Shown here one piece after another: positions 2,136-34,850 of a stretch of DNA of 41,561 nt (within the stretch, counting starts at the first letter, position 1; every line of letters begins with the position of its first letter). The notes beneath the pieces are model-generated. The model had not been told where the DNA came from. It worked only from the letters and a program-made list of their open reading frames with translations, and did not search any database. The translations under genes were made by a program, and so were the position numbers. Source of the DNA: Patescibacteria group bacterium (lineage in GTDB: Bacteria; Patescibacteriota; Minisyncoccia; Phycocordibacterales; UBA9973); the NCBI GenBank assembly GCA_038078255.1, contig JBBUEH010000013.1, positions 1-41,561 on the forward strand, read 5' to 3'.

Positions 2136-4835
2136 ATGAGCTTCAAAAATAAAACGAGTCAAAAAATAATTTCTGCTCTTCTAATTATTTTAATAATAGC
2201 GCCCGTTGCCATGTTTTCTGTACCCCAAAAAGCAGAAGCCTTTTGGTTCTCGACCTGGCTGACAGATGCAAGCACTACTACAACAGCAGTTACCACTGGA
2301 ACAGGCGCAACGGCGGAAGTTACACAGGTTGGCTTAAAAATAAAAGATGTTGCCAAAGAAATTTTAAGACAAATACTCATGACCGTCGCCAGAAGATTCT
2401 TACAGCAAATGACTAAAAGCACTATTAACTGGATTAATTCCGGCTTCCATGGAGCGCCGCTCTTCGTAGAAAATCCCAAATCTTTCTTCAGAGACATCGC
2501 TAAATATGAAATTAAAAATTTAATAGACTCCGTCGGTCGAGATCCGAAGAGATTCCCCTTCGGGAGGAACATGGCATTGGGCACAATCGCTGGCTTCAAG
2601 AGAACACTGGAGAACAATATGGAATACAGTCTAAGCAGAGTCATTGACGATCCTATCCTGCTCGAAAGATATCGAAGTGATTTCGATGTTGGAGGATGGA
2701 ATGGATTCTTAATCAATACGCAATATCCGCAAAATAATTATCTGGGATACCAGATGCTCTATACTGAGGAATTAGCAAGGAGACTTGAAGGCACGATCCA
2801 AAATAAAGCCCAAAAAGTAAATGAAGTTCTGGACCGAGGAATGGGCTTTTTGTCTCCGGAAACTTGTGCAGACAATAATGGGAATAATGCATACAATACA
2901 GTTCTTGCAAATCAATTTCAAAGACCAACCTATAAATCCCCAACCTTTGCGTTGCCTCCGGCTGTTTATGAATCAACTAGCGAAGTTGGTGACACTACTA
3001 CTGCCAGTGATACACTTTATCGTGGCGCTGAAACTCAAGAATCTATCAAAGCAAGAGAGGCTTATGCTAAAGATTGGCAAACAAGGGATGCAAATCTAAA
3101 AAAAGTCTGGGCAAGAAAAAATACTTGCGAGAATTTAGTTGCAACCACCCCCGGCTCTGTAGTAGCAAATCAAATAATGGGTGCGCTGGATTCAGGCAGA
3201 AAATTGGGTGAACTTGGCGCCGCTTTGGGTAATAGCATCTCTGCTATTTTTGATGCTTTATTAAACAAATTCTTGGGTGATGGACTAAATGCTCTTGCAA
3301 GCAAAGCAAATCCAGTAGTTCAAACGGACAACTGGGAGTATGATAAAGAGACTCTTGGTGGTCCAGCAGATGGAACTAATGTTCCTTGGGATTCTGGCCC
3401 GGACGAAGAAATTGTTTTGGATAAATTTGTAAAACAACTGGATGGCAAAACTACCATCACTGACAAGGATGGAGTGTTCGTTGACGAAAACATCGGGAAT
3501 AGTAGTGAAAAAACTATCATTATTACAGATATTATCGTGGATAAAGAGACTAATAAAGAAAGCGGGATTGAAACAAAATATGAGTTTGGAATACTGAATG
3601 AAACATTAGATCCTTCGAAACCTGAGCTTGATGTAAATACAGGAAAAGTAACTATCACTAAAGATGGAATTAAAAATGAAGGAACATATACCTTCTTCCC
3701 CGGCGATATAGAAAACACCAAGAAGGAACTTAAATTAATATCAAATGAAATTTCAGAAGATCCTGGAGTTACTGAAGTAATGGGAGAAATTTGGCCAAAA
3801 GCCCGAGACCTTGATATCTGCCAACCTGGCCCAGACCTGGGATGGAAAGAAAGAGTGATGAATGAGTTAAGTAGAAATAGTAAAAAACTCCAAGAAAAAC
3901 TAACCGATGATGATGGGAAAAAATCAGCTCAAGCTGATTTGGCTCTCAAGGAACTAAAATTTGCTGTAAACTTTTTCAAAGACTGGATAATTAACAACAT
4001 GATGAAGGGTCTCCCAAGATCTATGCTTTACATGGATGCCATAGATGAAATAGGGGAGTTGGCTCAACAAGCAGACGAACTAACCGACAAAAGACGAACA
4101 AAATCTCAAGCATTAGCAAGATTGCAAGCAATCAAGCTAAATCTAGATACTATTACCAGATTCAACTCAAATGGCAAGGTTCTCCAGCCAGAAAAAGAAT
4201 CCGTTGATGAAAAAATAATGATAACCTTAAGAAAACAATACAATGCAAACAAAATTGGAATTTCAAACAGCAATACGGTAGATGATATGAAAAATGAGCT
4301 AGCTATTGCAAAAGAAAAATTAGTAAACCTAAACAAGCTTGTAGCGGAATGTGAAGTAGCAAGAGAAGCAAATGGCTGGAGCCTGCCGGGTGGGCCACTC
4401 AGTGCGTATAGTGGCACTTCATCTTCTGGACAAGCTTTGTCCGATACGGAAAAAGGAATTTTCTGTGATGCGCCTATTAAGGGTGGATATACTCATGAAT
4501 CTTTTATACAAAGAAATACAGAAACTCATTCAGAAATACCATTAGTCAACGCAGAAGATGTGTTGAAGTGGCGTCGTTTTGGTTTTATCTTTGGGAACTT
4601 CACGGTTGATATAGAACTAAGTTGCAGTGTTATCTGGAAAGCCAATGTATTGGACTATAAGGGCAATCTACCCGGAACAACCAAACTAAAAGAGCCCTAT
4701 GTAGAGTTGCTAGATGACATAAGTGGCTTAGGTATTTGTAATGGTTACAATAATACTACTGGGGAAACAGTGACGGAATCAAATGTAACCCAAAGCGACT
4801 GTGGCACAGCAGGTGGAAGTTGGACTCCTTTTTAG
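2136..4835 (+). CDS. Large (899 aa) secreted/anchored hypothetical protein, Thr-rich linker, Cys-containing C-terminus
   Basis: Long uninterrupted ORF. N-terminal signal-anchor ...VPQKAEA, poly-Thr stretch. No family recognisable by eye. Confidence 0.7.
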   Translation: MSFKNKTSQKIISALLIILIIAPVAMFSVPQKAEAFWFSTWLTDASTTTTAVTTGTGATAEVTQVGLKIKDVAKEILRQILMTVARRFLQQMTKSTINWINSGFHGAPLFVENPKSFFRDIAKYEIKNLIDSVGRDPKRFPFGRNMALGTIAGFKRTLENNMEYSLSRVIDDPILLERYRSDFDVGGWNGFLINTQYPQNNYLGYQMLYTEELARRLEGTIQNKAQKVNEVLDRGMGFLSPETCADNNGNNAYNTVLANQFQRPTYKSPTFALPPAVYESTSEVGDTTTASDTLYRGAETQESIKAREAYAKDWQTRDANLKKVWARKNTCENLVATTPGSVVANQIMGALDSGRKLGELGAALGNSISAIFDALLNKFLGDGLNALASKANPVVQTDNWEYDKETLGGPADGTNVPWDSGPDEEIVLDKFVKQLDGKTTITDKDGVFVDENIGNSSEKTIIITDIIVDKETNKESGIETKYEFGILNETLDPSKPELDVNTGKVTITKDGIKNEGTYTFFPGDIENTKKELKLISNEISEDPGVTEVMGEIWPKARDLDICQPGPDLGWKERVMNELSRNSKKLQEKLTDDDGKKSAQADLALKELKFAVNFFKDWIINNMMKGLPRSMLYMDAIDEIGELAQQADELTDKRRTKSQALARLQAIKLNLDTITRFNSNGKVLQPEKESVDEKIMITLRKQYNANKIGISNSNTVDDMKNELAIAKEKLVNLNKLVAECEVAREANGWSLPGGPLSAYSGTSSSGQALSDTEKGIFCDAPIKGGYTHESFIQRNTETHSEIPLVNAEDVLKWRRFGFIFGNFTVDIELSCSVIWKANVLDYKGNLPGTTKLKEPYVELLDDISGLGICNGYNNTTGETVTESNVTQSDCGTAGGSWTPF

Positions 4836-4870: not shown

Positions 4871-6949
4871 ATGAGAAAATTAATTAAAAAAATAATTCCA
4901 TATTGCTTCATCCTCCTCATCCTCGCCGGACTTTTCGGTGCGGGGGAAGATGTGATGGCGCAAACACCTTCTTTTACAACACTAAACCCAGAACAAAAAG
5001 CTCGTTTTGATGGTCTTTATGCGACTTGCATGGAAAATCGTGGGTATGATGCAAGTGGTCCGAGTATTTGCGAAAGCCAAGCAATGAGAGTGATCTTGGG
5101 CACGGGATCACAGAATGACATCGGGGCAACAACAACAGCTACAACAACAGACGAGTCAGCATTCGACAGAGCAGTTACTAGTAAAATATGTGTACTCTCA
5201 GATTGGACTGGGGGTAGTATAGAAGGATGTATATTGCAATTTGTTTATTGGACCTTTTACACTCTTGGAGGTTGGTTGCTTGCTATTGCCGCTTCTTTGT
5301 TCAATTTTCTCATCATGATCACCCTAGGTAGCGCATTGTTAAAATCAAATTTCGTCTCTTCTGCCTGGGCAGTAGTCCGAGATCTTTCTAATCTTTTTTT
5401 CATTCTTGTTCTGCTTTACATAGCCATCAAGATGATTCTAGGATTGGGGGGGTCTGATGTAAAGAAAATGATCGTTCAGGTAATAATCATGGCCCTGCTT
5501 ATTAACTTTTCTATGTTTATGACTCACATTGTTATTGACACTTCCAATGTTCTTGCCTTAGTTTTCTACAATAAAGTCAATACCACTCCTAAAAAAGATA
5601 ACAAAGCACCGAATGCAGTAGCATCGCTTATTGATTATGCAACTGAAACAAAAGATATTGCCGGGGGTTTGACACAATCGTTTAATCCAGTATATAAGTT
5701 ACCTTCAGAATTCTTTACATCTGCCGTAATCATAAAAATACCAGGACGACCTCCGTTTAAAGAACCTATTTCAACTGGCATCTTGATCGGAATCACCGTG
5801 ATCGCTGGAGCGATTATGCTGTTCGCCGCTTATGCGCTTTTTATCTCAGCTTTAAGCTTTTTAGGCCGATTAATTGAACTTTTTATCTTAATCATCTTTT
5901 CTCCTTTCGCTTTTATGTCTCTGACTGTGCCGAAATTCGCAGGATTAGACTATTTAGGATGGGATGCGTGGCTAAAGCGCTTACTCAATGTGTCATTCAT
6001 GGCGCCAATCTTCATGTTCTTTTTGTATTTTATATTTTTATTGCTTGCAGATGGGGCAAGTATGTTTTCCGATTCGCTAAAAGGAGAAGGTGTGGTACAT
6101 ACACTTTTAGGTATTATGCTCCCGGCAATAGTAATTATGACTCTTCTCTTGAAAGCCACTGAATTCGCCAAGAAAGGTGGAGGAAAATTCGGAGAACTGG
6201 CAATCGGAGCAGGGAAACTAGTGGGTGGGCTTGCACTCGGAGCGGGGATAGGTGGAGCGGCGATGGCGGCAAGAACAACTATTGGTGGGGGTTTGGGTGG
6301 TCTAGCCAACAAAGTTGGCGCCAAGAGGCTTGGAGGTTATTTGCAGAGTAAAAGTTATGATGTACGCACAATACCGGGAGCTGGAAAACTTCTGGGTGCT
6401 ACAGGCCTAGCTGGAGGCGCTGGCGCCATAAAAACAAAAGAGGGTGGCTGGACACAGATGAAAAAAGAACAAGTGGAAAAAAGAATGAAGAGAGCAGACG
6501 AAACAATAAATAGAAAGACTTCTGGGAAAAAGAAAAAAGTGGAAGATGCACAAGCAGAACTAGATGAAAAAACACTTTTGGTAAAAGTAGACTTAGATGA
6601 AGCTAATAAAGCAATAGAAAAATGGAAAGGCGAATTAGCTGACGCACAAAGAGCAGGAGATGCAAGAGGAGTAACCAAAGCACAAATGGCTTTAGCACAA
6701 GCTAAAGACGACAAGACAAATCTACGAGCTAGAGCTGGTTTAGGGGTAGCTGAAAACAAAGTTCGCGATGCACAAAGAGATCTAGATACAGAAATTGGCA
6801 AAGTTGCTTCCGCTCAAGCGAATCGTGTAAAGAGTAGTTGGAGTAAAGCATGGGGACTATTTTCTAACCTGGGAGCATATAGTGTGGCAGGCGCAGACGA
6901 AGCTGCTAGAAATATAAGGAGGAGAGCAAAATTAGAAACAAAAACATAA
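4871..6949 (+). CDS. VirB6/TrbL-like polytopic membrane protein with Gly-rich and Lys/Ala-rich coiled-coil C-terminal tail
   Basis: ATG at 4871 follows GGAG and avoids the overlap of the 4820 start. Has a signal sequence, a Cys-containing periplasmic segment, a poly-Thr linker and at least 6 hydrophobic helices. The tail is GGGKFGELAIGAGKLVGGLALGAGIGG followed by a charged coiled coil. Confidence 0.6.
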   Translation: MRKLIKKIIPYCFILLILAGLFGAGEDVMAQTPSFTTLNPEQKARFDGLYATCMENRGYDASGPSICESQAMRVILGTGSQNDIGATTTATTTDESAFDRAVTSKICVLSDWTGGSIEGCILQFVYWTFYTLGGWLLAIAASLFNFLIMITLGSALLKSNFVSSAWAVVRDLSNLFFILVLLYIAIKMILGLGGSDVKKMIVQVIIMALLINFSMFMTHIVIDTSNVLALVFYNKVNTTPKKDNKAPNAVASLIDYATETKDIAGGLTQSFNPVYKLPSEFFTSAVIIKIPGRPPFKEPISTGILIGITVIAGAIMLFAAYALFISALSFLGRLIELFILIIFSPFAFMSLTVPKFAGLDYLGWDAWLKRLLNVSFMAPIFMFFLYFIFLLLADGASMFSDSLKGEGVVHTLLGIMLPAIVIMTLLLKATEFAKKGGGKFGELAIGAGKLVGGLALGAGIGGAAMAARTTIGGGLGGLANKVGAKRLGGYLQSKSYDVRTIPGAGKLLGATGLAGGAGAIKTKEGGWTQMKKEQVEKRMKRADETINRKTSGKKKKVEDAQAELDEKTLLVKVDLDEANKAIEKWKGELADAQRAGDARGVTKAQMALAQAKDDKTNLRARAGLGVAENKVRDAQRDLDTEIGKVASAQANRVKSSWSKAWGLFSNLGAYSVAGADEAARNIRRRAKLETKT

Positions 6950-6953
6950 ATAT

Positions 6954-7364
6954 ATGACCAATAAATTAAAACAAATAGCAATAGAAGAGATAAAAAAATT
7001 GCCAAAAGAAGCACAAGATATGATAAATTCTTTGGATTGGGGAAAAATTACGGAAGAAATTGGTAAAAAATATTTACTTTCAGAAAGTGAAATAAATGAT
7101 TTCCAAGTAGAAACTTTGTTGGTGTTGGTGGGTATTGAGAACGGAGATTTCTATGCGCAAAATATTGAAAATGAAGTCGGTACCAGCAAAGCTGAAGCAG
7201 AAAAAATTGCAAACGAAACACTAGAAAAAATATTCATTCCGATAAGTAATCTTCTGGAAGAAAATATTAAAAAAAATCTACCTAACAAAAATCCAAACCA
7301 CGAACAAAATGTTAATTTTATTCTTTCTGGCGGAGATTATTCAAGTTTTATAGAAGAAAAATAA
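6954..7364 (+). CDS. Hypothetical small protein, paralog of the next ORF
   Basis: 136 aa. Aligns by eye with 7366-7947 (LPKEAQDMINSLDW / LPTETINAINAVDW; ETLLVLVGI / ETELLLCGL; GTSKAEAEKIANE / GISKIAANELADE). Confidence 0.6.
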   Translation: MTNKLKQIAIEEIKKLPKEAQDMINSLDWGKITEEIGKKYLLSESEINDFQVETLLVLVGIENGDFYAQNIENEVGTSKAEAEKIANETLEKIFIPISNLLEENIKKNLPNKNPNHEQNVNFILSGGDYSSFIEEK

Positions 7365-7365
7365 C

Positions 7366-7947
7366 ATGAACGACACAGTAGATTTATTACAAATAAAAAT
7401 AGAGAAGGCAAGAAGGGAATTGCCCACAGAAACTATTAACGCCATCAATGCTGTTGACTGGAGGGAAGCTATCTTGGCGCTCCGAACGAAGAAGGGCTAC
7501 ACCTTCGAGCAATTAGGCGATCTGGAGCTTGAAACAGAATTGCTGTTATGTGGACTTTTAGCACCTGAGGATTACCCGAAGGAAATAGAAAAAAGAATGG
7601 GAATTTCTAAAATAGCCGCAAATGAACTGGCAGACGAAATGAATAATTCAGTATTCAAAAAAATCAGAGAAGAACTAATAAAGAATACGGAAAGAAAAAA
7701 AGTATTTCAAAAAAGACAAGAATCTCAAAAAGAAAACTCTATTTTTAGTTCCGCAGGGATTGAAATTGTCGGGGAAAAAGACATCCACCCGATGTTGCTG
7801 CAAAAATTATCCACCTCTGTTCAAACCCCAACAATAAAAACCACCCACACCCTCGAAAATATTACTCCAAAGATCGATGCCCCGATAAAACCAGCCCCTT
7901 CTTCTTATCCGCCCAAAGCAGACCCTTATCGTTTGTCACCAGAATAA
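7366..7947 (+). CDS. Hypothetical protein, paralog of the previous ORF with a Pro-rich C-terminal extension
   Basis: 193 aa. Starts 1 nt after the previous stop. Shared N-terminal domain, see 6954-7364. Confidence 0.6.
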   Translation: MNDTVDLLQIKIEKARRELPTETINAINAVDWREAILALRTKKGYTFEQLGDLELETELLLCGLLAPEDYPKEIEKRMGISKIAANELADEMNNSVFKKIREELIKNTERKKVFQKRQESQKENSIFSSAGIEIVGEKDIHPMLLQKLSTSVQTPTIKTTHTLENITPKIDAPIKPAPSSYPPKADPYRLSPE

Positions 7948-10918: not shown

Positions 10919-11938
10919 ATGAAGTTTAGACTTTTATCATTATATTTAGTTGTGATCCTTTCAGTCTTTGGAATAATTTTCTCGTTCAGTTTAAATAAAA
11001 TCAGGGCGGCTTCTTCGAGTAGTGTCTTGGTCAACATTGCGCCAGAAAATCCAGCCCCACATGAAGATGTCACTATTGATTTAAGTAGTTATGCTAATAA
11101 TTTAGACAGTGTTTCGATTCTTTGGTCTTTAAATGGCAGAAATGTTTTGTCTGGAATCGGTAAAAAGTCATTTTCTCTTACCGCCCCCGCCGCCGGAGAG
11201 GAAGCCATTATTACAGCCAATATTTCTTTCCCCGATGGTAATTTAGAAAAAAGAATAATCATCCGACCTTCCGTGATGGTGCTCCTCTCCCAGGCGACAG
11301 ATTCTTTCGTTCCACCATTCTATAGAGGGAAAGCTATGCCCACAGCAGACAGTGAAATTAAGATTGTTGCAATGCCAGAGATTAGCGCCTTAGGCTCTCC
11401 AGAGAGCCTAAGGCGCTCTTTGGTTGATCCAAAAAACATGACTTATGCCTGGAAGAAAGATTATACCAACAATCAAGAAGCGTCGGGTTATGGTAAAAAT
11501 TTTTTCATTTATACGAATGATTATTTAGAAGATTCAAATACTGTCTCAGTAGTAGCCTCGACAGTAGATCAGAAATATTCTTCTGAAGCAAACATTGAGG
11601 TGGGGGTAGCGGAGCCGAAAATTGTTTTCTATAAAAATGACAATGCGCTTGGAACAATTTGGGAAAGAGCTCTCTCTGATTCATATCGAATGGAAAATGC
11701 AGATATGATTGTGGAAGCGGCGCCTTATTTCATTTCACCTAAAGAATTACTGCATCCCTACCTGATCTGGACTTGGTCTATTAATGACACTGCCGTGCCT
11801 GTGCCAGACTTCAAGAAAAATTTCATGCCTCTGCGAATACAAAGCGGAACTTCTGGAACGGCCAAGCTCCGACTGGTTATCGAAAACATGGACAAAATTT
11901 TCCAAACGATGAGCAAAGAGGTGAATATAGAATTTTAA
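10919..11938 (+). CDS. Secreted/anchored hypothetical protein (beta-rich)
   Basis: 339 aa with N-terminal signal-anchor. No family recognised. Contains an in-frame 34-nt palindrome. Confidence 0.6.
   Translation: MKFRLLSLYLVVILSVFGIIFSFSLNKIRAASSSSVLVNIAPENPAPHEDVTIDLSSYANNLDSVSILWSLNGRNVLSGIGKKSFSLTAPAAGEEAIITANISFPDGNLEKRIIIRPSVMVLLSQATDSFVPPFYRGKAMPTADSEIKIVAMPEISALGSPESLRRSLVDPKNMTYAWKKDYTNNQEASGYGKNFFIYTNDYLEDSNTVSVVASTVDQKYSSEANIEVGVAEPKIVFYKNDNALGTIWERALSDSYRMENADMIVEAAPYFISPKELLHPYLIWTWSINDTAVPVPDFKKNFMPLRIQSGTSGTAKLRLVIENMDKIFQTMSKEVNIEF
11384..11417. repeat. 34-nt palindrome (16-bp perfect arms, 2-nt centre) in-frame inside a CDS
   Basis: agcgccttaggctctc ca gagagcctaaggcgct, checked base by base. 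Encodes ..SALGSPESLRR.. Confidence 0.9.
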
Positions 11939-12949: not shown

Positions 12950-14320
12950 ATGCAAAAAAGAAATTTTATACTTTTAATAATCGTCTTAGTTCTGGTAGTT
13001 ATTGGAGTTTTTGTGTTTTTATATTTCCAAAATGGAACAGAGGAAGAAAGTGAAGGCACAAATTTTATCGCCCGATTCAATCCCTTTGCCAGCAATAAGG
13101 GAACTCCTTCAGCCGGGAATCCACCTGTCGATGTATCCGGCTACGAACCCGGTCCGGAAGAAACAGAAAAGTTAAAATTAGTAAAAGTTTCCAGCATGCC
13201 CATTGCCGGATATACAATTTTTATCAAAGAAAGATTAAAAGAAATATCCTTGATTCCTCCCCTCCTTATGGAGGAGGGGGTTGGGGGTGGTGATAATTCT
13301 ACACCACCTCGCCCTTCGGGCACTCCTCCTCAGAAAGGAGGAGATAAAAAAAAGCCCACTCCGCCTCCCACAGAATTTATGCCCGCCTTACGCTATGTGG
13401 CAAAAGCGAACGGAAATATTTATCAATCATTTGTCGACAAAATAGAAGAGAGAAAGTTTTCAGGAACAATTATCCCGAAAGTATATGACGCATATTTCGG
13501 CAACAAAGGTGAGTCTGTGGTCATGCGCTATTTGAAAGGGGGAGGAGAAACAATAGAAACTTTCGTCGGCTCGTTGCCGAAAGAATACTTGGGTGGCGAT
13601 CTGGCTGAAGAAAACGAAATAAAAGGATCCTTCTTGCCGAACAATATCAAAGACCTTAGTGTCTCTCCAGACGGTTCAAAAATATTTTATTTATTTGAGA
13701 TTGGAAACAATATAGTAGGAACAACTTTAAACTTCTTAGATAACAAAAAAGTTCAAGTTTTTGATTCCCCTTTCACTGAATGGCTTTCGCAATGGGGGAA
13801 TGAAAAAACAATCCTCCTTTCGACTAAACCTTCTGGGAATGCCCCCGGCTATACATACAGTCTCGATCTAATCAAAAAGAATCTGCTGAAAGTCTTGGGT
13901 GAGATAAATGGGCTCACCACGCTTCTGAGTCCGGATGGAAAATTTATTATTTATACTGACAACAGCTTATTGCTTTCTGTCTTTTATGCAGACAGTCGGA
14001 ATTCAAACAGCTTGGGGATAGGAACTTTGCCAGAAAAATGTCTTTGGAATAAGACAAGCGAGGCTGTTTACTGCGCTGTGCCAAAATTTATTAATGCTGG
14101 CCTATATCCAGATATTTGGTATCAGGGAGAAGTGTCTTTCTCTGACCAGTTCTGGAAAATAGATATCCAAACTGGAAATGCTACCCTCCTCCTAGACCCT
14201 CTGACCGTTCCCGGTGGAGAAGAAATTGATGGAATAAAATTAGCCTTAGATAAAGACGAGGATTACTTATTTTTTGTAAATAAAAAAGATTCTTTTCTGT
14301 GGAAATTGGATTTGAAGTAG
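12950..14320 (+). CDS. Membrane-anchored protein with Pro-rich linker and PD40/TolB-like beta-propeller repeats
   Basis: N-terminal TM helix. SPDGSKIFY and SPDGKFIIY blade motifs. Carries the 92-nt repeat element in its linker. Confidence 0.6.
   Translation: MQKRNFILLIIVLVLVVIGVFVFLYFQNGTEEESEGTNFIARFNPFASNKGTPSAGNPPVDVSGYEPGPEETEKLKLVKVSSMPIAGYTIFIKERLKEISLIPPLLMEEGVGGGDNSTPPRPSGTPPQKGGDKKKPTPPPTEFMPALRYVAKANGNIYQSFVDKIEERKFSGTIIPKVYDAYFGNKGESVVMRYLKGGGETIETFVGSLPKEYLGGDLAEENEIKGSFLPNNIKDLSVSPDGSKIFYLFEIGNNIVGTTLNFLDNKKVQVFDSPFTEWLSQWGNEKTILLSTKPSGNAPGYTYSLDLIKKNLLKVLGEINGLTTLLSPDGKFIIYTDNSLLLSVFYADSRNSNSLGIGTLPEKCLWNKTSEAVYCAVPKFINAGLYPDIWYQGEVSFSDQFWKIDIQTGNATLLLDPLTVPGGEEIDGIKLALDKDEDYLFFVNKKDSFLWKLDLK
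13253..13344 (+). repeat. Multi-hairpin repeat element, copy A (in-frame inside a CDS)
   Basis: About 85-90% alignable by eye to the reverse complement of 23568-23672. Hairpins: cctcc-ttat-ggagg, ggtggtg-N9-caccacc, gccc-ttc-gggc, ctcctcc-N7-ggaggag. Confidence 0.8.
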
Positions 14321-14321
14321 C

Positions 14322-14365
14322 AACTTGGAGGTTCTTCCTCCACTTGGAGGAAGAACCTCCAAGTT
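14322..14365. terminator. Bidirectional palindromic terminator (20-bp perfect arms, 4-nt loop) between convergent genes
   Basis: aacttggaggttcttcctcc actt ggaggaagaacctccaagtt. Overlaps the jag stop codon by 2 nt. Its 5' 25 nt recur at 18983-19007. Confidence 0.75.
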
Positions 14366-14861
14366 AAATACCAATATACTTGATCACTACCCGCCGACTC
14401 GATCCAAAACCAACAGATTCAGTCTGAAGATCGGTAGAATCAGATAAAAATTCATGCACCACTCGGCGCTCGAAGGCAGACATCGGATCGACTTCTATGT
14501 TTGATTTGAAATACCTCGCTCGCTCAGACATCATATGGGCTACCGCTCGAATGTTTTCTACTCTTTTTTTCTGAAAACCATTAATGTCAATCAAGAAAGA
14601 TCCTGCTTCGCCCCCAATGACGGTCTTAGGGGAATCCCCTAAGACCGTCATTGGGGTTTTCCCCTCAACTATCCTTCGCACCAGGTGGTTCAAAGCATAA
14701 AGCGCCTCACCGTCTTGCGAAATAAAAAAATGTGGTTCGTTCACTTCAATAGAGTACCAAGTATTCCCCCCATTTTCTTCTGAAATGGTGATTTTTTCTA
14801 ACGATACTCCTGTCTTCGCAATTAATTCCTGGATTAAATTTTGTATTTGTTCTTTGTCCAT
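14364..14861 (-). CDS. jag: Jag/KhpB-like RNA-binding protein (KH + R3H)
   Basis: 165 aa. R3H-type ERRVVHEFL...SxG..P.RRVVI end. Conserved position downstream of yidC. Confidence 0.8.
   Translation of the reverse strand: MDKEQIQNLIQELIAKTGVSLEKITISEENGGNTWYSIEVNEPHFFISQDGEALYALNHLVRRIVEGKTPMTVLGDSPKTVIGGEAGSFLIDINGFQKKRVENIRAVAHMMSERARYFKSNIEVDPMSAFERRVVHEFLSDSTDLQTESVGFGSSRRVVIKYIGI
14612..14656. repeat. 45-nt perfect palindrome (22-bp arms, 1-nt centre) in-frame inside jag
   Basis: ccccaatgacggtcttagggga a tcccctaagaccgtcattgggg, every pair checked. Encodes ..PMTVLGDSPKTVIGG.. Confidence 0.95.
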
Positions 14862-18982: not shown

Positions 18983-19007
18983 AACTTGGAGGTTCTTCCT
19001 CCAAGTT
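18983..19007. terminator. Bidirectional hairpin terminator (10-bp stem), same sequence family as 14322-14365
   Basis: aacttggagg ttctt cctccaagtt. Overlaps the stop codon of the minus-strand PBP gene by 2 nt. Confidence 0.7.
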
Positions 19008-23017: not shown

Positions 23018-23539
23018 CTAAAATTTTAAATACGCAAAGGCAGTCAAGGCTGTGGCGATAGCGTCTAATTCGTCATCAGATTTTTTAAAACTATCAATAT
23101 CGACGAGTATTTTCACCATTTTATTTATCTGTGTTTTGTCCGCTCGACCGTAGCCCGTGGTGGCTACTTTTATTTGTAAGGGTGTTGCTTCAAAGATAGA
23201 AAGTCCCGCTTGTACTCCCTCATAAATCACCACTCCGCGCGCTTCTGCCACTCTCATAACTGTCTTCTGATTTGTATTTAAAAATAAAGTTTCTATTGCC
23301 AGTACTTCTGGTTTGTATTCTTTGATTACCCTCTTTACTTCTTCGCCGATTAGTTTCAACCGTTCGGAGAATTCCAATTTACTAGAAGTTTTAAAACATT
23401 CAGAAAAAATAACTTTCTCTTTTTTTTGTCCAGCATAGGAGTTTCCTATGATGTCATAGGAAACTCCTATGCTGGGTTTTTCTAACACTGCTATTCCCAG
23501 TCTTTCAAAACCTGGATCAATGCCTAGAATTTTTGTCAT
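23018..23539 (-). CDS. ruvC: Holliday junction resolvase RuvC
   Basis: 173 aa. ILGIDPG..LGIAVLE N-terminus, AIETLF, DELDAIATAL C-terminal catalytic region. Carries an insertion of about 15 aa encoded by a palindrome. Confidence 0.9.
   Translation of the reverse strand: MTKILGIDPGFERLGIAVLEKPSIGVSYDIIGNSYAGQKKEKVIFSECFKTSSKLEFSERLKLIGEEVKRVIKEYKPEVLAIETLFLNTNQKTVMRVAEARGVVIYEGVQAGLSIFEATPLQIKVATTGYGRADKTQINKMVKILVDIDSFKKSDDELDAIATALTAFAYLKF
23430..23475. repeat. 46-nt palindrome (22-bp perfect arms, 2-nt centre) in-frame inside ruvC
   Basis: ccagcataggagtttcctatga tg tcataggaaactcctatgctgg, pairs checked. Encodes ..PSIGVSYDIIGNSYAG.. between the first beta-strands of RuvC. Confidence 0.95.
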
Positions 23540-23567
23540 GATTTTATTTTACCATGATTTTATTTTA

Positions 23568-23672
23568 TCTCCTCCTTATGGAGGAGGAGTGCCCCCCGAC
23601 ATAGGTCGGGGGCGAAGTGGTGATTAAAGAATTACCACCCCCAACCCCTCCTTGATGAAGGAGGGGAGGAAT
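23568..23672 (-). repeat. Multi-hairpin repeat element, copy B (intergenic, inverted relative to copy A)
   Basis: Its reverse complement aligns with 13253-13344. Hairpins: ctcctcc-ttat-ggaggag, gcccccgac-atag-gtcgggggc, ggtggtg-N13-taccacc, cccctcc-N8-ggagggg. Confidence 0.8.
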
Positions 23673-23678
23673 GCAGGA

Positions 23679-23687
23679 TGTGGATAA
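23679..23687 (-). promoter_or_regulatory. Perfect DnaA box (TTATCCACA on minus strand)
   Basis: tgtggataa at 23679-23687. Confidence 0.5.
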
Positions 23688-23715
23688 CTCATTTGCATAG
23701 ATAGATAGATATATT

Positions 23716-23980
23716 CTTTAAAAAGAAGATACACCCCACAGATGATCGTGGGGGTGTCGTAGTACACAAGGAACAAACACCATGAGAACGTACATCAAGT
23801 ACACCAACGGCCCCGGCAACGACAACACCGGCGCCCCTGCTCAAGTCGAATCTGCCGTTATCGGCGTGACGGTAGGCAGTGTCAACGGGACTCCTGCGAA
23901 GCCTTTGCATATCGGCGGGTGATCGACGCTGGGGGACCACCACCCCGGCAAGAAAGAGGGCGCACCCGGACGGGGGCCCT
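23716..23980 (-). ncRNA. Candidate structured RNA of unknown class (GC-rich islet); alternative reading is a 46-aa ORF on the plus strand at 23782-23922
   Basis: GC is 119/180 (66%) over 23801-23980 against 41/120 (34%) over 24001-24120, by hand count. On the minus strand a TAGAAT -10 sits at 23982-23987. A terminator hairpin acacccccac-N8-gtggggtgt plus U-run sits at 23716-23757. Several GC hairpins are present. No RNase P, tmRNA or SRP signature was found by eye. Confidence 0.3.
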
Positions 23981-24149
23981 CATTCTAAACAGTTTGTTCT
24001 TTCTGTCTGAAGAAACTAGTGAGTTTAACTCACAAACCGATAGATGCAAATCTATCCAGTGTCATTTCTGAAAAATGATATATCTTTCTTGACCTCTTTG
24101 AATCTCTTTGATTCATCGAGGTTTTTGTCTTTTTAGAGTAATTTCTATA

Positions 24150-24176
24150 CTTCCGCTAGGAAAGACCTAGCGGAAG
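24150..24176 (-). terminator. Perfect 11-bp hairpin abutting the ruvB stop codon
   Basis: cttccgctagg aaaga cctagcggaag. No clear U-tract, so terminator function is uncertain. Confidence 0.4.
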
Positions 24177-27237: not shown

Positions 27238-29634
27238 ATGCTTAAAGAGGATATGCAAAAGAATAAAATCTTAGTTTTGCTCGATGCGCACGCTATTATT
27301 CACCGGGCGTATCATGCTCTGCCTGAGTTTTTGTCTTCCAAGGGCGAGCCTACGGGGGCCTTGTATGGGCTAGCAAGCATGCTGATGAAGATAATCACTG
27401 ATTTAAAGCCGGACTATATTGTGGCTTGTTATGATTTGCCGGGGAAGACATTTCGCCATGTTGCTTATGATGCCTATAAGGCAGGCAGAGTAAAGGCTGA
27501 TGATGCTCTAATAATGCAATTAAAAAAATCTCGTCAAATTTTCGAAGCCTTCAATATTTCTATGTATGACAGCCCGGGCTTCGAAGCAGATGATGTGTTG
27601 GGGACGATTGTAGAGAAATATAAAAAAGATAAAAACATAAATATAATTATTGCTTCTGGTGACATGGACACCATGCAATTAGTGGATGATAAAAAAGTGC
27701 AAGTCTATACTTTGAAGAAAGGCATTAATGAAACAATTTTATACGATGAAGAAAAAGTGGTGGAAAGATTTGGTTTTAAGCCAAAACTTTTGCCAGACTA
27801 TAAAGGACTTCGGGGCGATCCATCGGATAATATTGTTGGGATCAAGGGTATCGGAGAAAAAACGGCAACCATTCTAATAACTACTTTTGGAACTATTGAA
27901 GAAATTTATAAGACAATAAAAAAAGACGAAGAATCTTTTAAAAAAGTGGGTATTAGTCCACGAATAATGGAGTTGATAAAAAATAATGAAGAAGAAGCCT
28001 TGTTTTCAAAAACCTTAGCGACTATCCAGACTGATGCGCCCCTTAACTTTTCTTTGCCTGCTCAGTCGTTTTGGGAAACGGCGGACTTAAAAAAGATAGA
28101 AAAAGTTTTTGTTTTATTTGAATTTCGGTCTTTGTTTACAAGGCTGAAAAGTTTTTTTGGTTTAACAGTAGTGCCTAAAGCACTGGAACCTAGTGCTTTA
28201 GGCGCTACGGGAATAGATCCGCAAAAGCTCCAGGAAGCGAGTATCGCTCTTTGGCTTATCAATTCCGACATCTCCAATCCACAACTTGATGATATTTTAT
28301 TATTTGCGAATACCAGTGACTTTACTTCAGCCTCTGAATATATTTTCAAAACACTTCAAGAAAAAAATTTAGAAAAAATCTACAATGAGATAGAACGGCC
28401 GATAATGAACATTGTTAAAGAGATGGAAGATTATGGAATTTTAATAAACAAAAAATATTTTGAAAAATTATCTGGAGAGTATCATGATGAGCTAAATAAG
28501 TTAACAAAAAAAATTTACAAAATGGCTGAAGTAGAATTTAACATTAATTCCCCGAAACAGTTGGGCGAAGTGCTTTTTGATAAAATGGGAATAAAATCTC
28601 CCAATAAAAAAACAGCCAAGAAAAATGCAAGTGGCGGGTTTTCTACTAAAGTTTCAGTCTTAGAAGAATTGGAAGAGGAAAATCCAATTATCAAAGAAAT
28701 AATGGCTTACCGAGAATTGCAAAAGTTGCTTTCTACTTATGTTGATGTTATTCCAAGCATGGCGGGTGTGGACGGTAGGCTTCACGCAAAGTTTTTACAA
28801 AATGCCACCACGACAGGCAGATTTTCTTCACAAGATCCAAATTTACAAAATTTACCGATCAAAACAGAACTAGGTAAAAGAATTCGAGGGGGATTTATTG
28901 CTCAGGAGGGGTCTAAACTTTGTGCTTTTGATTATAGTCAGATTGAATTGCGAGTAGCGGCGATGCTCTCGGGAGACAAGAAGATGACGCAGATTTTTCG
29001 CGATAAAAAGGATATTCATGCTGGAGTGGCGTCTTTTGTGTTTGGTGTACCGCTAGAAAAAGTGGATAGCGAAATGCGTCGCCAAGCAAAAGTGATAAAC
29101 TTTGGCATTATTTATGGCATGGGGGTTACAGCTTTGCGGAAAAATCTTGGTGGTACCAGAGAAGAAGCGCAAAAGTTTTATGATAATTATTTTAGTCAAT
29201 TTTCTGGAGTGCGAGATTATTTAGAAAAAGTCAAAGCTTTTACTCTAAAGAATTTTTACACAGAGACTTTATTTGGTCGCCGGAGAAATTTCCCCAATAT
29301 AAATTCCAGAATTCCATTTTTGAAAAACATGGCGGAACGAACCGCTACCAATGCGCCTATCCAAGGGACAGCTACGGCGGACATTATTAAGCTGGCGATA
29401 CGATATGCGGAGGAAGATTTGAGAAATATAAATTTGTTAGACAAAGTACATCTCGTACTTCAGATTCACGATGAACTGGTATATGAAATAGAAAAAGAGG
29501 TATTGGGAAAAGCCGAAAAGATAATAAAAAGTGCCATGGAGGGTGTCCTGGAGCGGTCGTATTTGCATTATAAAACCGATATTCCGCTTGAAGTACATTT
29601 TGGTTCGGGTGATAATTTCGGAGAAGTGAAGTAG
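27238..29634 (+). CDS. polA: DNA polymerase I
   Basis: 798 aa. 5' nuclease domain (GIKGIGEKTA H3TH). Pol motifs A DYSQIELR, B RRQAKVINFGIIYG, C QIHDE. Confidence 0.95.
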   Translation: MLKEDMQKNKILVLLDAHAIIHRAYHALPEFLSSKGEPTGALYGLASMLMKIITDLKPDYIVACYDLPGKTFRHVAYDAYKAGRVKADDALIMQLKKSRQIFEAFNISMYDSPGFEADDVLGTIVEKYKKDKNINIIIASGDMDTMQLVDDKKVQVYTLKKGINETILYDEEKVVERFGFKPKLLPDYKGLRGDPSDNIVGIKGIGEKTATILITTFGTIEEIYKTIKKDEESFKKVGISPRIMELIKNNEEEALFSKTLATIQTDAPLNFSLPAQSFWETADLKKIEKVFVLFEFRSLFTRLKSFFGLTVVPKALEPSALGATGIDPQKLQEASIALWLINSDISNPQLDDILLFANTSDFTSASEYIFKTLQEKNLEKIYNEIERPIMNIVKEMEDYGILINKKYFEKLSGEYHDELNKLTKKIYKMAEVEFNINSPKQLGEVLFDKMGIKSPNKKTAKKNASGGFSTKVSVLEELEEENPIIKEIMAYRELQKLLSTYVDVIPSMAGVDGRLHAKFLQNATTTGRFSSQDPNLQNLPIKTELGKRIRGGFIAQEGSKLCAFDYSQIELRVAAMLSGDKKMTQIFRDKKDIHAGVASFVFGVPLEKVDSEMRRQAKVINFGIIYGMGVTALRKNLGGTREEAQKFYDNYFSQFSGVRDYLEKVKAFTLKNFYTETLFGRRRNFPNINSRIPFLKNMAERTATNAPIQGTATADIIKLAIRYAEEDLRNINLLDKVHLVLQIHDELVYEIEKEVLGKAEKIIKSAMEGVLERSYLHYKTDIPLEVHFGSGDNFGEVK
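28173..28203. repeat. 31-nt inverted repeat (12-bp perfect arms, 7-nt spacer) in-frame in the polA inter-domain linker
   Basis: gcctaaagcact ggaacct agtgctttaggc. Encodes ..PKALEPSALG.. Confidence 0.85.
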
Positions 29635-31064: not shown

Positions 31065-31904
31065 ATGGCAAATCCACTTTCCAAAAAAGACGCTGTTAAA
31101 TATCTCAGTCTTAACGAGAAAACCTTCGATAACTACTTTAAGAATGCGCATGAGTTTCCATGCATCGCGAGGATTGGCGCACGGGGCAGATTCTATTTCG
31201 ACGAAGAAGTACTTCGTAAATGGAAAGAAGGAGTGGCGTGGAGGACTGTCGAATTAACTAAAGATGATTACGCATTGTGTTTGGATTTTGCTCTCGCACA
31301 GCATTTCAGAAACTACGTTCAATCAGATTTCGGCACTGGACGACAGCGAGAATTTGGACAAAAAATAACAAACTGGGTCAAAGGACAACTGGGAGAAGTT
31401 GCTGTTAGAAAATTCTTTAAAAGAGAATTTGGTGTAGACGTTGACCTCGATTTTGATATTCGTGAACAAATTGTCTTACAAGACATTACAGGAATTAAGA
31501 ATAACGGAAAAATGAGGGTTCCTAAAATTGGGGTAGGAATAAAATCATCAAAACCTAAAAGTGCCTTCTTGGTACTTGGAGCAAATGAAATTAACATTAA
31601 AGGACGCAGGTCTGATATTTATATTTACTGCCGTCCAGACATTCCAGACGACCATTTACTTAGAATAGCAAAGGAAGAAATCAACGAAGTAGTAAAAGGC
31701 AGACCGCACTATTTAAAGTACAAAGATCTAATGCCTGAATTTACCAATATCTCCTGTGAAGTTGTGGGCTGGTGTCACTACACAGATTTAAGAGAAACAG
31801 ATAAAATTCCAGGACAGGATTTTGAAGGCACTAGATTCGTAAAAGAATCCGGCCTTTTAAGGAAATTAAAAGAAGACTGGCAAGAACTTATAAAGCAACT
31901 GTAG
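31065..31904 (+). CDS. Putative type II restriction endonuclease (PD-(D/E)xK-like) with N-terminal HTH_17/excisionase-type DNA-binding domain
   Basis: ATG at 31065 follows a TTGATT-17-CATACT promoter. The N-terminus LSKKDAVKYLSLNEKTFDNYF..GRFYFDEEVLRKWK is MerR/Xis-like. The core has GQLGEVAV, ..LQDITG.. and ..GVGIKSSK. The 3' end overlaps the convergent C5-MTase gene by 17 nt. Confidence 0.55.
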   Translation: MANPLSKKDAVKYLSLNEKTFDNYFKNAHEFPCIARIGARGRFYFDEEVLRKWKEGVAWRTVELTKDDYALCLDFALAQHFRNYVQSDFGTGRQREFGQKITNWVKGQLGEVAVRKFFKREFGVDVDLDFDIREQIVLQDITGIKNNGKMRVPKIGVGIKSSKPKSAFLVLGANEINIKGRRSDIYIYCRPDIPDDHLLRIAKEEINEVVKGRPHYLKYKDLMPEFTNISCEVVGWCHYTDLRETDKIPGQDFEGTRFVKESGLLRKLKEDWQELIKQL

Positions 31905-33033
31905 TTACAACTTTTGTTGAATCAAAGAGACTTGCTATCTCTTGAGCGTTATTTTCTCCATTAGTTAGTTTTGACTCTATGAATTCGTAGGGCGTACCTG
32001 CGAAAGTTTTTAACACAGCAGAAATAATTACTTGCGCTCCAAGGGGGGGGACCGCCATACCAATCTGCTTTCTAGCACTTTCTTTTGAACCCTCAAATAT
32101 GAAATTATCAGGAAAAGACTGTAATCTTGCACGTTCCCGATTTGTAAGTGCACGGTTTTCTGACCAGTGATAAACATGAGTTCCACCGCCACCGCTTCCA
32201 GTTATGGTGTACGAAGGTTTGTCAGGATGAAGTCTTTTATAAATCTGACTCATGCGTGCACCCTTTACGTTCAGTCTTAAGTGTTGAGGTATTCCTTCAT
32301 ACCAAGCATTTTCGCCAGCAGGAATATATTTTAAGCGCTCAACAACACCCGCAGACTGGTTAGTAAGTTCGTGATTAGACGCGTCTTTTGATATTTTCGG
32401 ATTTTCTATCGCCTTGCGCGCACTTACATAGTTATATTTTGTAGTTGGTGCCGGCACTTTGAATTTTAATCCGAGATCTTTTCTTATTCCAATAATCACA
32501 ATTCGGTGTCTCTGTTGAGGCACACCATATTCTTCAAATTTGTATAAATGTGGCGTAAGGACATAACCCTTTCCTGCAGAACCGAGGTCCTTCAAAATTT
32601 GCTTAAAAGCTTGTCCCCCGTTTGCACTCTGTAAACCACTAACATTTTCTGCAATAAACCACTTTGGATTATGTATATTTATTGCCCTAACTCCGTGAGA
32701 ATAAAGAGGTCCAAATTTACCATCGAAACCTTTTTGCTCGCCAACAATACTAAAGTCATTACAAGGGAAACCAAAAGCAAGTACATCAAACTTGGGTACT
32801 TTCCCGAAATCTATTTCTTTGACGTCCGCACAAACAACATTTTCTTCGTTCCCGTTGTGAATGTTTTGAGCGTATGTCTTACAAGTGTCGGCGTCATAGT
32901 CATTTGCCCAAACAGACTCTATCCCGTAAATTGTACTTTTATTTTCAGCAAAAGAATTAACGGCACCAAGAGCAAGTCCTCCTGGGCCGGAGAATAATTC
33001 TGCTAACTTAAATTTGATTTGTTTTTTCTTCAT
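31888..33033 (-). CDS. DNA (cytosine-5)-methyltransferase
   Basis: Motif I FSGPGG, IV FPCNDFS, VI AENV, VIII QQRHR, X GMAVPP. Confidence 0.9.
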   Translation of the reverse strand: MKKKQIKFKLAELFSGPGGLALGAVNSFAENKSTIYGIESVWANDYDADTCKTYAQNIHNGNEENVVCADVKEIDFGKVPKFDVLAFGFPCNDFSIVGEQKGFDGKFGPLYSHGVRAINIHNPKWFIAENVSGLQSANGGQAFKQILKDLGSAGKGYVLTPHLYKFEEYGVPQQRHRIVIIGIRKDLGLKFKVPAPTTKYNYVSARKAIENPKISKDASNHELTNQSAGVVERLKYIPAGENAWYEGIPQHLRLNVKGARMSQIYKRLHPDKPSYTITGSGGGGTHVYHWSENRALTNRERARLQSFPDNFIFEGSKESARKQIGMAVPPLGAQVIISAVLKTFAGTPYEFIESKLTNGENNAQEIASLFDSTKVVTTVAL

Positions 33034-33061
33034 GAATGTATGACTTTATTTTAACATGTTA

Positions 33062-33691
33062 TTAATTTATATTCTTTATAACGTCTACAACTTTGCCACT
33101 AACTTGATAATTATCTTCAGCGTGTACAAAAATTGGAAAATAATCCTGACTTGATTCAGATTGAAGGACTATGTGCTGGTTTTTTTTGTCGACAATGAAT
33201 TTTTTTACGTTTGCCATTCCATCAATAACAGAGACAACATATTCACCGGATTGGGGAGTCTTTTGTTCGGCGTCAACGATGACAAAATCTCCATCCTCAA
33301 TGGTTTTCCCTCCAACATTCGCCTTATTCATAGAATTACCTTCGGCGTGCAACGCAAAGACTTTTCTATTGGGTTGCATTATCTTTTTTGAAACCTTAAG
33401 GTATCCTTCTGCTCGCTCTTCTGCAAACACAGTCGCAGGGCCACAATTTGCAGACCCAAAAATTGGAATTGAAATAAACATACCAGAAACATCTGATTCT
33501 TTGTTAACCCTTTTTATAATCTTGTTTTTCTTATCTATTGAAACAAACCCCTTTCTCTCTAGTTGAGAGAGGTGATGTTTAATTTTCTGGGGGAACTTTT
33601 CTCCGATTAAAGAACCAATGTCTCTAAGGGTTAGTCCGCTTATGTTTTTTTCATTTAATAAACTTAGTAGTTTTTCTTGAACTAGATGCAT
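33062..33691 (-). CDS. LexA/CI-type repressor (winged HTH + S24 peptidase)
   Basis: N-terminal LexA-like wHTH (..IKHHLSQLERKGFV..). S24 motifs GNSM (Ser), GDFVIVD and VKKF (Lys). Lies 28 nt upstream of, and co-oriented with, the methyltransferase. Confidence 0.8.
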   Translation of the reverse strand: MHLVQEKLLSLLNEKNISGLTLRDIGSLIGEKFPQKIKHHLSQLERKGFVSIDKKNKIIKRVNKESDVSGMFISIPIFGSANCGPATVFAEERAEGYLKVSKKIMQPNRKVFALHAEGNSMNKANVGGKTIEDGDFVIVDAEQKTPQSGEYVVSVIDGMANVKKFIVDKKNQHIVLQSESSQDYFPIFVHAEDNYQVSGKVVDVIKNIN

Positions 33692-34165: not shown

Positions 34166-34220
34166 TAATCAATAAACTAAATATGTCCTTGTGTATCCTG
34201 TTTTTCTTTCTGCGTAGCCT
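34166..34220 (+). repeat. Direct repeat copy 1 (about 55 nt, about 85% identical to 34796-34850)
   Basis: taatcaataaactaaatatgtccttgtgtatcctgtttttctttctgcgtagcct versus taatcaataaactaaatctgtccctgtgtactctgttcgtctttctgcattgcct. Confidence 0.8.
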
Positions 34221-34288
34221 TAGTATTAAGTATTTAGGGTATAATAATTTCGTAACATAAGATCTTGTTACTTTCTACTATATATAAA

Positions 34289-34798
34289 ATGCTAGATTAT
34301 TTAGAACAATGGAATAGGCTAGAGAGATACTATAAAAAAGTTTTAGATCTGGAACTTAATGAGCAAAATTTAAGTAGCGACGAGTGTTTAGAGGAAATGT
34401 ATTTGTTCTTTGAAAACTGTTTTAAATTGAGAGATTGGGTAAGAAACTCTGAGTATGTTGGCAAGAAAGCAAAGACAGAAATAACAGAACTATTTGAAAA
34501 TGATAAAAACCTAAGTGTGTGTGCGGGCTTGGCAAACAGACGAAAGCACCTCAGGATTGATAGTAGAAAAAGATATGGTGATTCTAGTGTTGTAAGTCAT
34601 TCTGTTACGGTAATGGTGCCAGTTTTACGAATAGGAAGTAGTCGGCCCCAGACATCATCAATAACTAAGGCTAAATACAACTGGGGGCTGAAGTCTGGAG
34701 GGGAAAAGTTTGAATTGATTAGATTAGCTAAGCTGTGTATGGAAGAAATAAAAACATTTATGAGTGACCACAATCTTTTGAGTCAGGCTACAAAATAA
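34289..34798 (+). CDS. Hypothetical protein (169 aa), possibly HEPN-like; bracketed by direct repeats
   Basis: ATG at 34289. FFENCFKLRDWV ... CAGLANRRKHL is reminiscent of some HEPN/Abi families, but this is weak and by eye only. Confidence 0.55.
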   Translation: MLDYLEQWNRLERYYKKVLDLELNEQNLSSDECLEEMYLFFENCFKLRDWVRNSEYVGKKAKTEITELFENDKNLSVCAGLANRRKHLRIDSRKRYGDSSVVSHSVTVMVPVLRIGSSRPQTSSITKAKYNWGLKSGGEKFELIRLAKLCMEEIKTFMSDHNLLSQATK

Positions 34799-34850
34799 TC
34801 AATAAACTAAATCTGTCCCTGTGTACTCTGTTCGTCTTTCTGCATTGCCT
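34796..34850 (+). repeat. Direct repeat copy 2
   Basis: See 34166-34220. Overlaps the stop codon of the 34289-34798 ORF. Confidence 0.8.

Follow-up and report, generated by a model that had tools for sequence, protein, structure and literature searches.

The 41,561-nucleotide stretch analyzed here (the window) comes from the chromosome of a Nomurabacteria/Paceibacteria bacterium (Parcubacteria, Candidate Phyla Radiation or CPR) from Hainich groundwater. It carries two copies of a repeat that folds into four consecutive hairpins (H1 to H4): copy A is translated as part of a 456-residue protein, and copy B lies, inverted relative to copy A, in the spacer between ruvB and ruvC. We argue below that they are probably copies of a nonautonomous palindromic repeat family of Paceibacteria/Nomurabacteria, comparable to the repetitive extragenic palindromes (REPs) and the Rickettsia palindromic elements (RPEs). 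The relevant features of the window are these:

12950 to 14320, plus strand: host gene of copy A, encoding a 456-aa protein with an N-terminal transmembrane helix and a seven-bladed beta-propeller
13254 to 13345, plus strand: copy A, four-hairpin element, translated as residues ~102-132 of the 456-aa protein
13256 to 13280, plus strand: H1 of copy A, CCTCCCCTCCTT / loop / AGGAGGAGGGGG, from the RNAfold minimum free energy structure
13284 to 13310, plus strand: H2 of copy A, GGGGGTGGT ... ACCACCTC; its apical loop varies, and one G-T wobble is conserved
13311 to 13321, plus strand: H3 of copy A, short, GCCC-TTC-GGGC
13323 to 13343, plus strand: H4 of copy A, CTCCTCCT / CAGAA / AGGAGGAG, from the fold, with T-A to C-G covariation across subfamilies
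23018 to 23539, minus strand: ruvC, downstream of copy B (Pfam RuvC, E 4e-35)
23567 to 23671, minus strand: copy B, four-hairpin element, intergenic, in the 637-nt ruvB-ruvC spacer
23645 to 23666, 23615 to 23640, 23593 to 23612 and 23569 to 23589, minus strand: H1, H2, H3 and H4 of copy B; its H3, of 8 bp, is longer than that of copy A

Covariance model and nhmmer searches place both copies within 1 nt of where an earlier note on this DNA had put them. The similarity which that note had described is real and inverted, but somewhat lower than the 85-90% it had estimated by eye: 72 of 92 aligned positions are identical (78%), with 13 gap columns that mostly reflect the longer third hairpin of copy B, and identity falls to 69% when gaps are counted, so that A and B are not close relatives of each other; weaker similarity extends beyond both copies, over 13244-13353 and 23559-23683. 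Each of two 14-nt cores has exactly two occurrences in the window, a count not reached in 100 dinucleotide shuffles per core; nhmmer E-values are 2e-25 for copy A and 6e-21 for copy B, and covariance model R1 scores copy A at 98.6 bits (E 2e-20, model positions 1-96) and copy B at 86.8 bits (E 1.2e-17). The four hairpins and the local GC-richness noticed earlier are likewise confirmed, as four consecutive hairpins form in each copy whichever strand is folded (z = -4.8 to -6.0 relative to shuffles), and the GC content is 0.58 (A) and 0.56 (B) compared with 0.386 for the whole window. In H1 of copy A the pyrimidine arm is 5′ and is followed by a purine arm containing AGGAGG.

Copy A is read in-frame as IPPLLMEEGVGGGDNSTPPRPSGTPPQKGGD within the open reading frame (ORF) 12950-14320, the last gene of a module resembling a type IV secretion system (T4SS; PrgI, TraG-type ATPase, pilin) and next to jag-yidC-rnpA-dnaA; relatives keep the gene order T4SS-like module, 456-aa gene, jag, yidC, rnpA, dnaA, dnaN, PBP, tyrS, ruvC, ruvB. 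An AlphaFold2 model of the 456-aa protein (mean predicted local distance difference test score, pLDDT, 77) has an N-terminal transmembrane helix followed by a beta-propeller, and Foldseek matches the model to seven-bladed WD40-type propellers. The propeller in the earlier description of the insert, as lying in the Pro-rich linker of a PD40-propeller protein, is supported; the Pfam PD40 match, however, is sub-threshold, and the insert is a low-confidence loop between strands rather than a simple Pro-rich tail. Specifically, pLDDT is below 50 for the element-encoded residues 101-131, which connect strands 85-96 and 141-151, and the peptide is predicted to be disordered.

Copy B places its H4 purine arm, AAGGAGGAGA, upstream of the ruvC ATG, but a 16-nt tandem duplication of TAAAATAAAATCATG at 23531-23562, which includes the ruvC start codon, now separates this Shine-Dalgarno-like arm from the ATG by 27 nt. 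The ruvB-ruvC spacer (23540-24176) is, at 637 nt, unusually long for this genome; it contains an 84-aa ORF (23689-23943) that has no Pfam match and is not on record as a gene, and none of nine public contigs of this strain has a gene called in it.

The two copies belong to a sizable family. A pattern search spanning H2 to H4 matched 35 metagenome contigs, all of low GC and CPR-like; a pattern of H1 plus the following G-run added two further CPR genomes, L023 and L032, in which the element is complete (L numbers identify sampled loci throughout); and nhmmer together with model R1 recovered 46 full-length copies on low-GC CPR contigs, 22 of them intragenic and 24 intergenic, with up to 3-4 copies on single small contigs (L059, L048). 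From 42 copies, which also served for the scans of arm conservation and target-site duplication, we derived the consensus (T)TAG-CTCCCCTCCTT-loop-AGGAGGGGG-TT-GGGGGTGGTRATT-loop-AATYACCACCTC-GCCC-loop-GGGC-A-CTCCTCCTC-loop-AAGGAGGAGA, in which H1 is CTCCCCTCCTT-loop-AAGGAGGGG, H2 is GGGGGTGGTRATT...AATYACCACCTC, H3 is a small hairpin GCCC...GGGC, and H4 is CTCCTCCTC-loop-AAGGAGGAG. The element is ~90-105 nt long; its stems are near-invariant in sequence, the H1 arms being so across all 42 copies, whereas its loops differ in both sequence and length, and the length of H3 changes in frame-preserving steps. Its left and right halves are imperfect inverted repeats of each other, and the ends form imperfect terminal inverted repeats, (A)ATTTTAGCTCCCCTCCTT... 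versus ...AAGGAGGAGAGAAATT. Pairing evidently matters, since T-A to C-G changes occur in pairs between subfamilies in H3 and H4, and compensated changes are found in single copies as well (L072:638 in H4, L059:590 in H3).

No described family was found to account for the repeat. A search of the window with Rfam 15 gave only two tRNAs and no family at gathering score, permissive matches on 13200-13400 were all far below threshold, and 12 related loci gave nothing; BLASTN of copy B against plasmid and phage collections found no match, for which a low-complexity filter may be responsible. The GTAG and CGTC tags are absent, the 42-copy consensus starting with (T)TAG-CTCCCC and ending with GGAGGAGA-RAA. 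Separate terminator-like hairpins follow some copies, so the element is not itself a terminator, and we also rejected a CRISPR, a tRNA-derived sequence, and a peptide motif, as the copies have neither spacers nor T-runs and their synonymous sites are conserved.

All 22 intragenic copies lie in gene-sense orientation and are read at the 5′ end in the same frame, PLLxEEGVGGG; most also share the frame of the 3′ end, GTPPQKGGE, while the frame of the middle differs between copies although the DNA stays the same, and changes in the length of the loops and of H3 sum to multiples of three. The product is a Gly/Pro-rich peptide of ~31 residues, PLLxEEGVGGG...GTPPQKGGE, stop codons interrupting both remaining forward frames of the element and most of its reverse ones. 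The host proteins are unrelated to each other and represent at least 10 families, including TopA (DNA topoisomerase I), UvrA, TsaD, MnmA, PolA, a Glu/Asp racemase-like protein, TGT, FtsK, and LigA; the insert is present in a UvrB fragment, too. In hosts other than the 456-aa protein the insert splits a Pfam domain or falls at a linker position. A profile of the peptide could not be used to count host proteins, because a 31-residue match falls below significance in 5.8 billion sequences; a doubled profile gave 3 matches only. Intergenic copies, on the other hand, occur in both orientations relative to neighboring genes. They typically span the whole spacer, from 1-12 nt past a stop codon to 7-11 nt before the next start, so positioning the terminal purine arm AAGGAGG like a Shine-Dalgarno sequence; some, however, closely follow a stop codon or separate two convergent genes.

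At four orthologous coding sites (in the 456-aa protein, TopA, TsaD, and MnmA), synonymous third positions are identical in 355 of 377 comparisons within the element (0.94) but in only 1560 of 3096 in the flanks (0.50), where they are saturated (0.45-0.59 identical); every pairwise comparison is significant at p < 0.005. We conclude that the DNA, not the peptide, is maintained. The constancy of the stems could come from continued recognition, from homogenization or replacement by active copies, or from a host-level function. Replacement is hinted at by the TopA site common to L052, L064, L071, and L079, where L064 holds a different subfamily variant.

Constancy of the DNA goes together with rapid turnover of the sites. 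In orthologs of the 456-aa protein the loop that holds copy A is empty in L084 (KERLKDKGTEF), holds the same element in L085, and is occupied in L082 and L083 by other multi-hairpin families built on the same plan; orthologs that have the same peptide in this loop also have the same DNA. Of 120 orthologs, 11 have the main type, 20 a second (NPTPTLPLSGEG...PPAKGGSGGL), and 8 a third, with decayed remnants besides, and the distribution of the main type implies at least 9 changes on a neighbor-joining tree, a crude tree on which such counts are indicative only. The TGT loop EEHxKL...ALFGIVQG is empty in many orthologs (403 aa) and holds at least 6 insert families among proteins 87-91% identical to that of L048. 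Finally, the MreC-TGT junction shows five states in five related genomes: i) TAA|ATG without any spacer in L113; ii) the present element in L048; iii) a single variant module in L115; iv) an unrelated 105-nt element with 11-nt inverted ends in L114; and v) another composite element in L112. For hairpin elements from several families, the MreC-TGT junction and the TGT loop are both hot spots. New copies do arise intragenomically: sister copies on the same contig are 96% (L048), 92% (L072), and 89% (L047) identical, which puts them in the top 4% of all pairs.

Part of the element reaches well beyond the CPR. The core formed by H1 and GGGGGTGG was found by exact pattern at 45 genome loci, including Thiomargarita (in tandem arrays), low-GC Gammaproteobacteria, Prevotella and Bacteroidales, Chloroflexia, sphingomonads (as inverted doublets), Nitrospirota, Nitrospinota, and a Geobacter relative; elements from Gammaproteobacteria, Balneolaceae, sphingomonads, and Permianibacter match the covariance model over its full length (1-96) with E-values of 1e-7 to 1e-11. 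A relaxed core pattern also matched 17 viral contigs, one with five copies, but viral contigs lack the complete CPR element. The viral matches consist of H1 and the G-run module in phage-like contigs of GC 0.44-0.63 (L096-L111, and L095, a 9.6-kb contig that has it five times), and a further complementary arm often precedes the purine arm, making alternative hairpins possible. In Thiomargarita (L001) an unrelated palindromic repeat, AGATTTGACAACTTTTCGAAAGTTGTCAAATCTAAAA, lies beside the H1-module arrays at 5780-5880 and 7340-7390, and a Saccharibacteria locus (L009) has a single H1 plus G-run module at 4029-4064, apparently in-frame and just upstream of coding sequence for ...GIHIADVSHYV, which by eye looks RNase R/II-like.

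Because both the core and full-length model matches are found in other phyla, we regard the CPR element as one branch of a wider REP-like superfamily, and horizontal spread of the module would account for its distribution. It is conceivable, if somewhat doubtful, that the core CCTCCCCTCCTT-loop-AAGGAGGGG-TT-GGGGGTGG marks an old cross-phylum class, with members in the CPR, Gamma- and Alphaproteobacteria, Bacteroidota, Chloroflexota, Nitrospirota, and phage-like contigs, which is constrained in sequence and actively maintained even in essential genes through recognition by widespread machinery. It might take the form of a phage-borne transposase or nuclease specific for hairpins, or of a host factor that binds DNA or RNA.

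Several other features of the window deserve mention. Long, perfect or near-perfect palindromes with arms of 16-22 nt, each unique in the DNA sampled, lie in-frame within jag/R3H (14612-14656), ruvC (23430-23475), polA (28168-28208), and ORF 10919-11938 (11384-11417); in relatives other inserts occupy the same Jag and RuvC loops, and the PolA palindrome of the window lies at the linker where L049 PolA bears the four-hairpin element. It seems a general trait of this lineage that protein loops take up palindromic inserts. A hairpin motif AACTTGGAGG...CCTCCAAGTT (GGAGG/CCTCC) occurs after the 456-aa gene (14322-14365) and after dnaN (18983-19007), between convergent genes; it may represent either a terminator acting in both directions or one more small repeat. 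ORF 34265-34798, which encodes 177 aa without a Pfam match, is bracketed by a direct repeat of 56 nt (86% identical; 34166-34221 and 34796-34851) in what may be a small cassette or duplication. On the minus strand at 31888-33691 a C-5 cytosine DNA methylase gene adjoins a gene for a LexA/S24-like repressor. GC skew across the window gives no clear origin signal, and with 2 copies only we read no replication-strand orientation from it.

How might such a repeat spread and persist? A trans-acting enzyme that recognizes the hairpins would copy or move the element, probably acting on single-stranded or cruciform DNA as do the REP-associated tyrosine transposases (RAYTs) and the Y1 transposases of IS200/IS605; purifying selection would then filter the insertions, so that survivors are seen only at harmless sites. 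Between genes, either terminal purine arm AAGGAGG could serve as the ribosome-binding site of the next gene; within genes, survival would require the single stop-free orientation and frame, and a peptide placed in a linker between domains or in a loop at the surface. Copy A would be such a survivor in a disordered propeller loop, and copy B an intergenic copy before ruvC.

We wish to stress that several observations weigh against this interpretation. No mobilizing enzyme or RAYT was found in the ~0.65 Mb of flanking DNA sampled, no transposase is encoded in the window, and no autonomous insertion sequence (IS) with matching ends was seen in the loci examined. The only two ORFs bracketed by inverted modules, which we considered as transposase candidates, turned out to be housekeeping genes for TsaD and a TerB-like protein. 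A scan of 42 copies (k = 3-9, all offsets) shows no sequence duplicated across the ends above background, nor does a target-site duplication appear when the empty MreC-TGT junction (L113) is compared with the filled ones (L048, L115); lacking both target-site duplications and a GTAG/CGTC tag, the element fails to qualify either as a MITE (miniature inverted-repeat transposable element) or as a classical REP. Stop codons alone do not adequately explain the 22:0 orientation bias of coding copies, because by a rough calculation ~8 of 20 intergenic copies (~40%) have one open reverse frame. Copy numbers per genome are extrapolated from contig fragments rather than counted. And at orthologous sites the stems are conserved far above neutral expectation, unlike decaying selfish DNA, which may mean that the element has a function. 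IS110/IS1111 elements often insert into REPs. In L083 (3030-4230) the only transposase gene seen near an element, one of the IS110 family, lies immediately beside, but is not bounded by, a variant hairpin element located in the spacer that follows the 454-aa ortholog; the IS110-family element may have targeted the repeat, but does not explain its mobilization.

Stem conservation is also one reason for considering that the element might be a functional nucleic-acid signal selected by the host (a conserved protein's binding or processing site, an uptake-type signal, or an RNA stability element) and no parasite at all; the cell would then retain it at given sites, even coding ones, for its own needs. 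Such a signal would be expected to keep its synonymous sites (94% identical, as against 50% in the flanks, at the four orthologous sites) and to keep its stems in sequence, not merely in pairing, and the near identity of the H1 and GGGGGTGG core across phyla, viral contigs included, points the same way. The uptake sequences of Neisseria and Haemophilus favor genome-maintenance genes, and the hosts of our element are similarly enriched for DNA replication and repair. A bias of the same kind has been reported for intragenic REPs (PMC3733652). Yet sites turn over quickly, close relatives being empty or carrying unrelated families at the same loop or junction; decayed remnants exist; the density is low, 2 copies in 41.5 kb; intergenic copies lie in both orientations relative to transcription; and sharing across phyla speaks against a species-specific uptake signal. 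We therefore think a host-selected signal unlikely, if still worth keeping in mind. Less likely again is the proposal that intergenic copies are cis-regulatory RNAs that gate downstream translation (in the manner of a thermometer or riboregulator, each hairpin pairing a Shine-Dalgarno-like arm, AAGGAGG, with an anti-Shine-Dalgarno-like arm, CCTCC), the coding copies being accidental. At least 8 intergenic copies do place a start codon 7-11 nt from a terminal GGAGG arm, in either orientation (for example the L048 copies at 1745 and 7775 and the group L057/L062/L076/L078), copy B precedes ruvC with AAGGAGGAGA, and at the empty MreC-TGT junction of L113, which has no spacer, an inserted element would provide the only strong Shine-Dalgarno sequence. 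But one copy in two is located within an ORF, some intergenic ones closely follow a stop codon or sit between convergent genes, no Rfam family matches, and in copy B itself the 16-nt duplication has shifted the arm 27 nt from the ATG. Service of the terminal arm as a Shine-Dalgarno sequence is at most a secondary use of an inserted element.

The remaining two explanations we find very hard to sustain. Recurrence of PLLxEEGVGGG...GTPPQKGGE in many proteins might suggest a conserved Gly/Pro-rich linker peptide selected at the protein level, with the intergenic copy a pseudogenized fragment; this highly improbable account is contradicted by the 94% synonymous identity and by the frame-shifted middle over constant DNA, 24 of the 46 full copies are intergenic and in both orientations, and the peptide is predicted to be disordered and is dispensed with by orthologs. 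Compositional bias, with runs of C/T and G/A, might equally produce a chance resemblance between two low-complexity purine/pyrimidine-rich stretches, but the shuffle controls, nhmmer and covariance model E-values of 1e-17 to 1e-25, and dozens of full-length copies with the same hairpin order make coincidence more improbable still. A mobile palindromic repeat thus remains our preferred explanation, much as the earlier note had supposed when it called the segment a MITE/RPE-like mobile repeat: coding and noncoding copies coexist in RPE-like fashion, the copy number it asked about is high (46 full copies in the sampled DNA, 22 in-frame in unrelated genes), some orthologs of the 456-aa protein lack the segment (L084) while others have different elements or remnants, and paired T-A to C-G changes are present between subfamilies and in a few single copies. 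The MITE half of that label did not survive, the target-site duplications it had envisaged being absent; because neither these nor a cognate transposase could be found, RPE/REP-like is the better description.

CPR/Patescibacteria genomes are regarded as streamlined, yet this family and its sister families add 20-50 residues to core enzymes and fill gene junctions. They explain hypervariable loops in CPR protein alignments; they affect annotation through spurious small ORFs, split Pfam domains, and inflated protein lengths; and they offer natural markers for tracking strains in groundwater metagenomes. The family would be a second, independent case beside Rickettsia of selfish palindromes creating protein sequence, and it lies outside current REP/MITE models in having near-invariant stems beside saturated synonymous sites and a core common to phyla and phage-like contigs. 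If the cross-phylum class proved real, it would be a major source of new loops and linkers of core proteins in CPR bacteria.

Uptake sequences in Neisseria and Pasteurellaceae are lineage-specific motifs of 9-12 nt, present about once per kb, kept in coding regions in tolerated frames, over-represented in genome-maintenance genes, and often found as hairpin pairs after genes. The CPR element is alike in its tolerated coding frames, its host-gene bias, and its hairpin pairing after genes but differs in being ~95 nt long, in occurring about once per 10-20 kb, and in having a cross-phylum core. It also resembles MITEs (Correia/NEMIS, ERIC, the Coxiella QMITE, and the Geobacter Chunjie element), which are likewise small, noncoding by themselves, bounded by imperfect terminal inverted repeats, polymorphic for insertion, and tolerated within operons and ORFs, as for Chunjie, which is reported to insert into an operon without disrupting it (PMC10969869); unlike MITEs it leaves no target-site duplication, and the loci examined yielded no parent IS with matching ends. 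The GTAG and CGTC families of REPs have been defined by Di Nocera et al. 2013 (PMC3733652), whose text and supplements do not contain the motif of our element, and intragenic REPs and RPEs are known from many species, with replication and repair genes as frequent hosts (PMC3733652; PMC10969869). The REP-like unit here is an imperfect palindrome of ~35 nt, H1 plus TTGGGGGTGG, which occurs singly, in tandem with a period of 36-41 nt, or as inverted pairs; since its left half is an imperfect inverted repeat of its right half, the complete CPR element resembles an inverted REP doublet of the REPIN (REP doublet forming hairpins) or BIME (bacterial interspersed mosaic element) kind. Like REPs it lacks target-site duplications and is intragenic in TopA, PolA, LigA, UvrA, UvrB, and FtsK; unlike them it has no GTAG/CGTC tag, and intragenic copies make up about half of the full ones sampled. 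RPE-1 to RPE-10 (Ogata et al. 2000, summarized in PMC10969869 and PMC3733652) are palindromic repeats of ~100-150 bp from a small-genome, host-dependent bacterium, found between genes and in-frame in many unrelated housekeeping genes, where they encode a hydrophilic segment in a loop, and with no known transposase or target-site duplication; in all of these respects the CPR element is alike. It differs from RPEs in lineage (CPR, not Rickettsiales), in being built of four C/T-G/A hairpins on GGAGG/CCTCC, in having stems that are near-invariant at orthologous sites, and in sharing its core with several phyla. As its organism is a CPR bacterium, we take it to be an analog of the RPEs, likened by features and not by sequence comparison, rather than a member. 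A full-text literature search returned no paper joining CPR terms with REP, REPIN, or MITE terms, and nothing relevant for the motif strings, in agreement with the earlier suggestion that such a repeat had gone undescribed in this kind of genome. On the best reading, the element acts like an RPE or a REP doublet, stands outside any described family, and is new for CPR bacteria.

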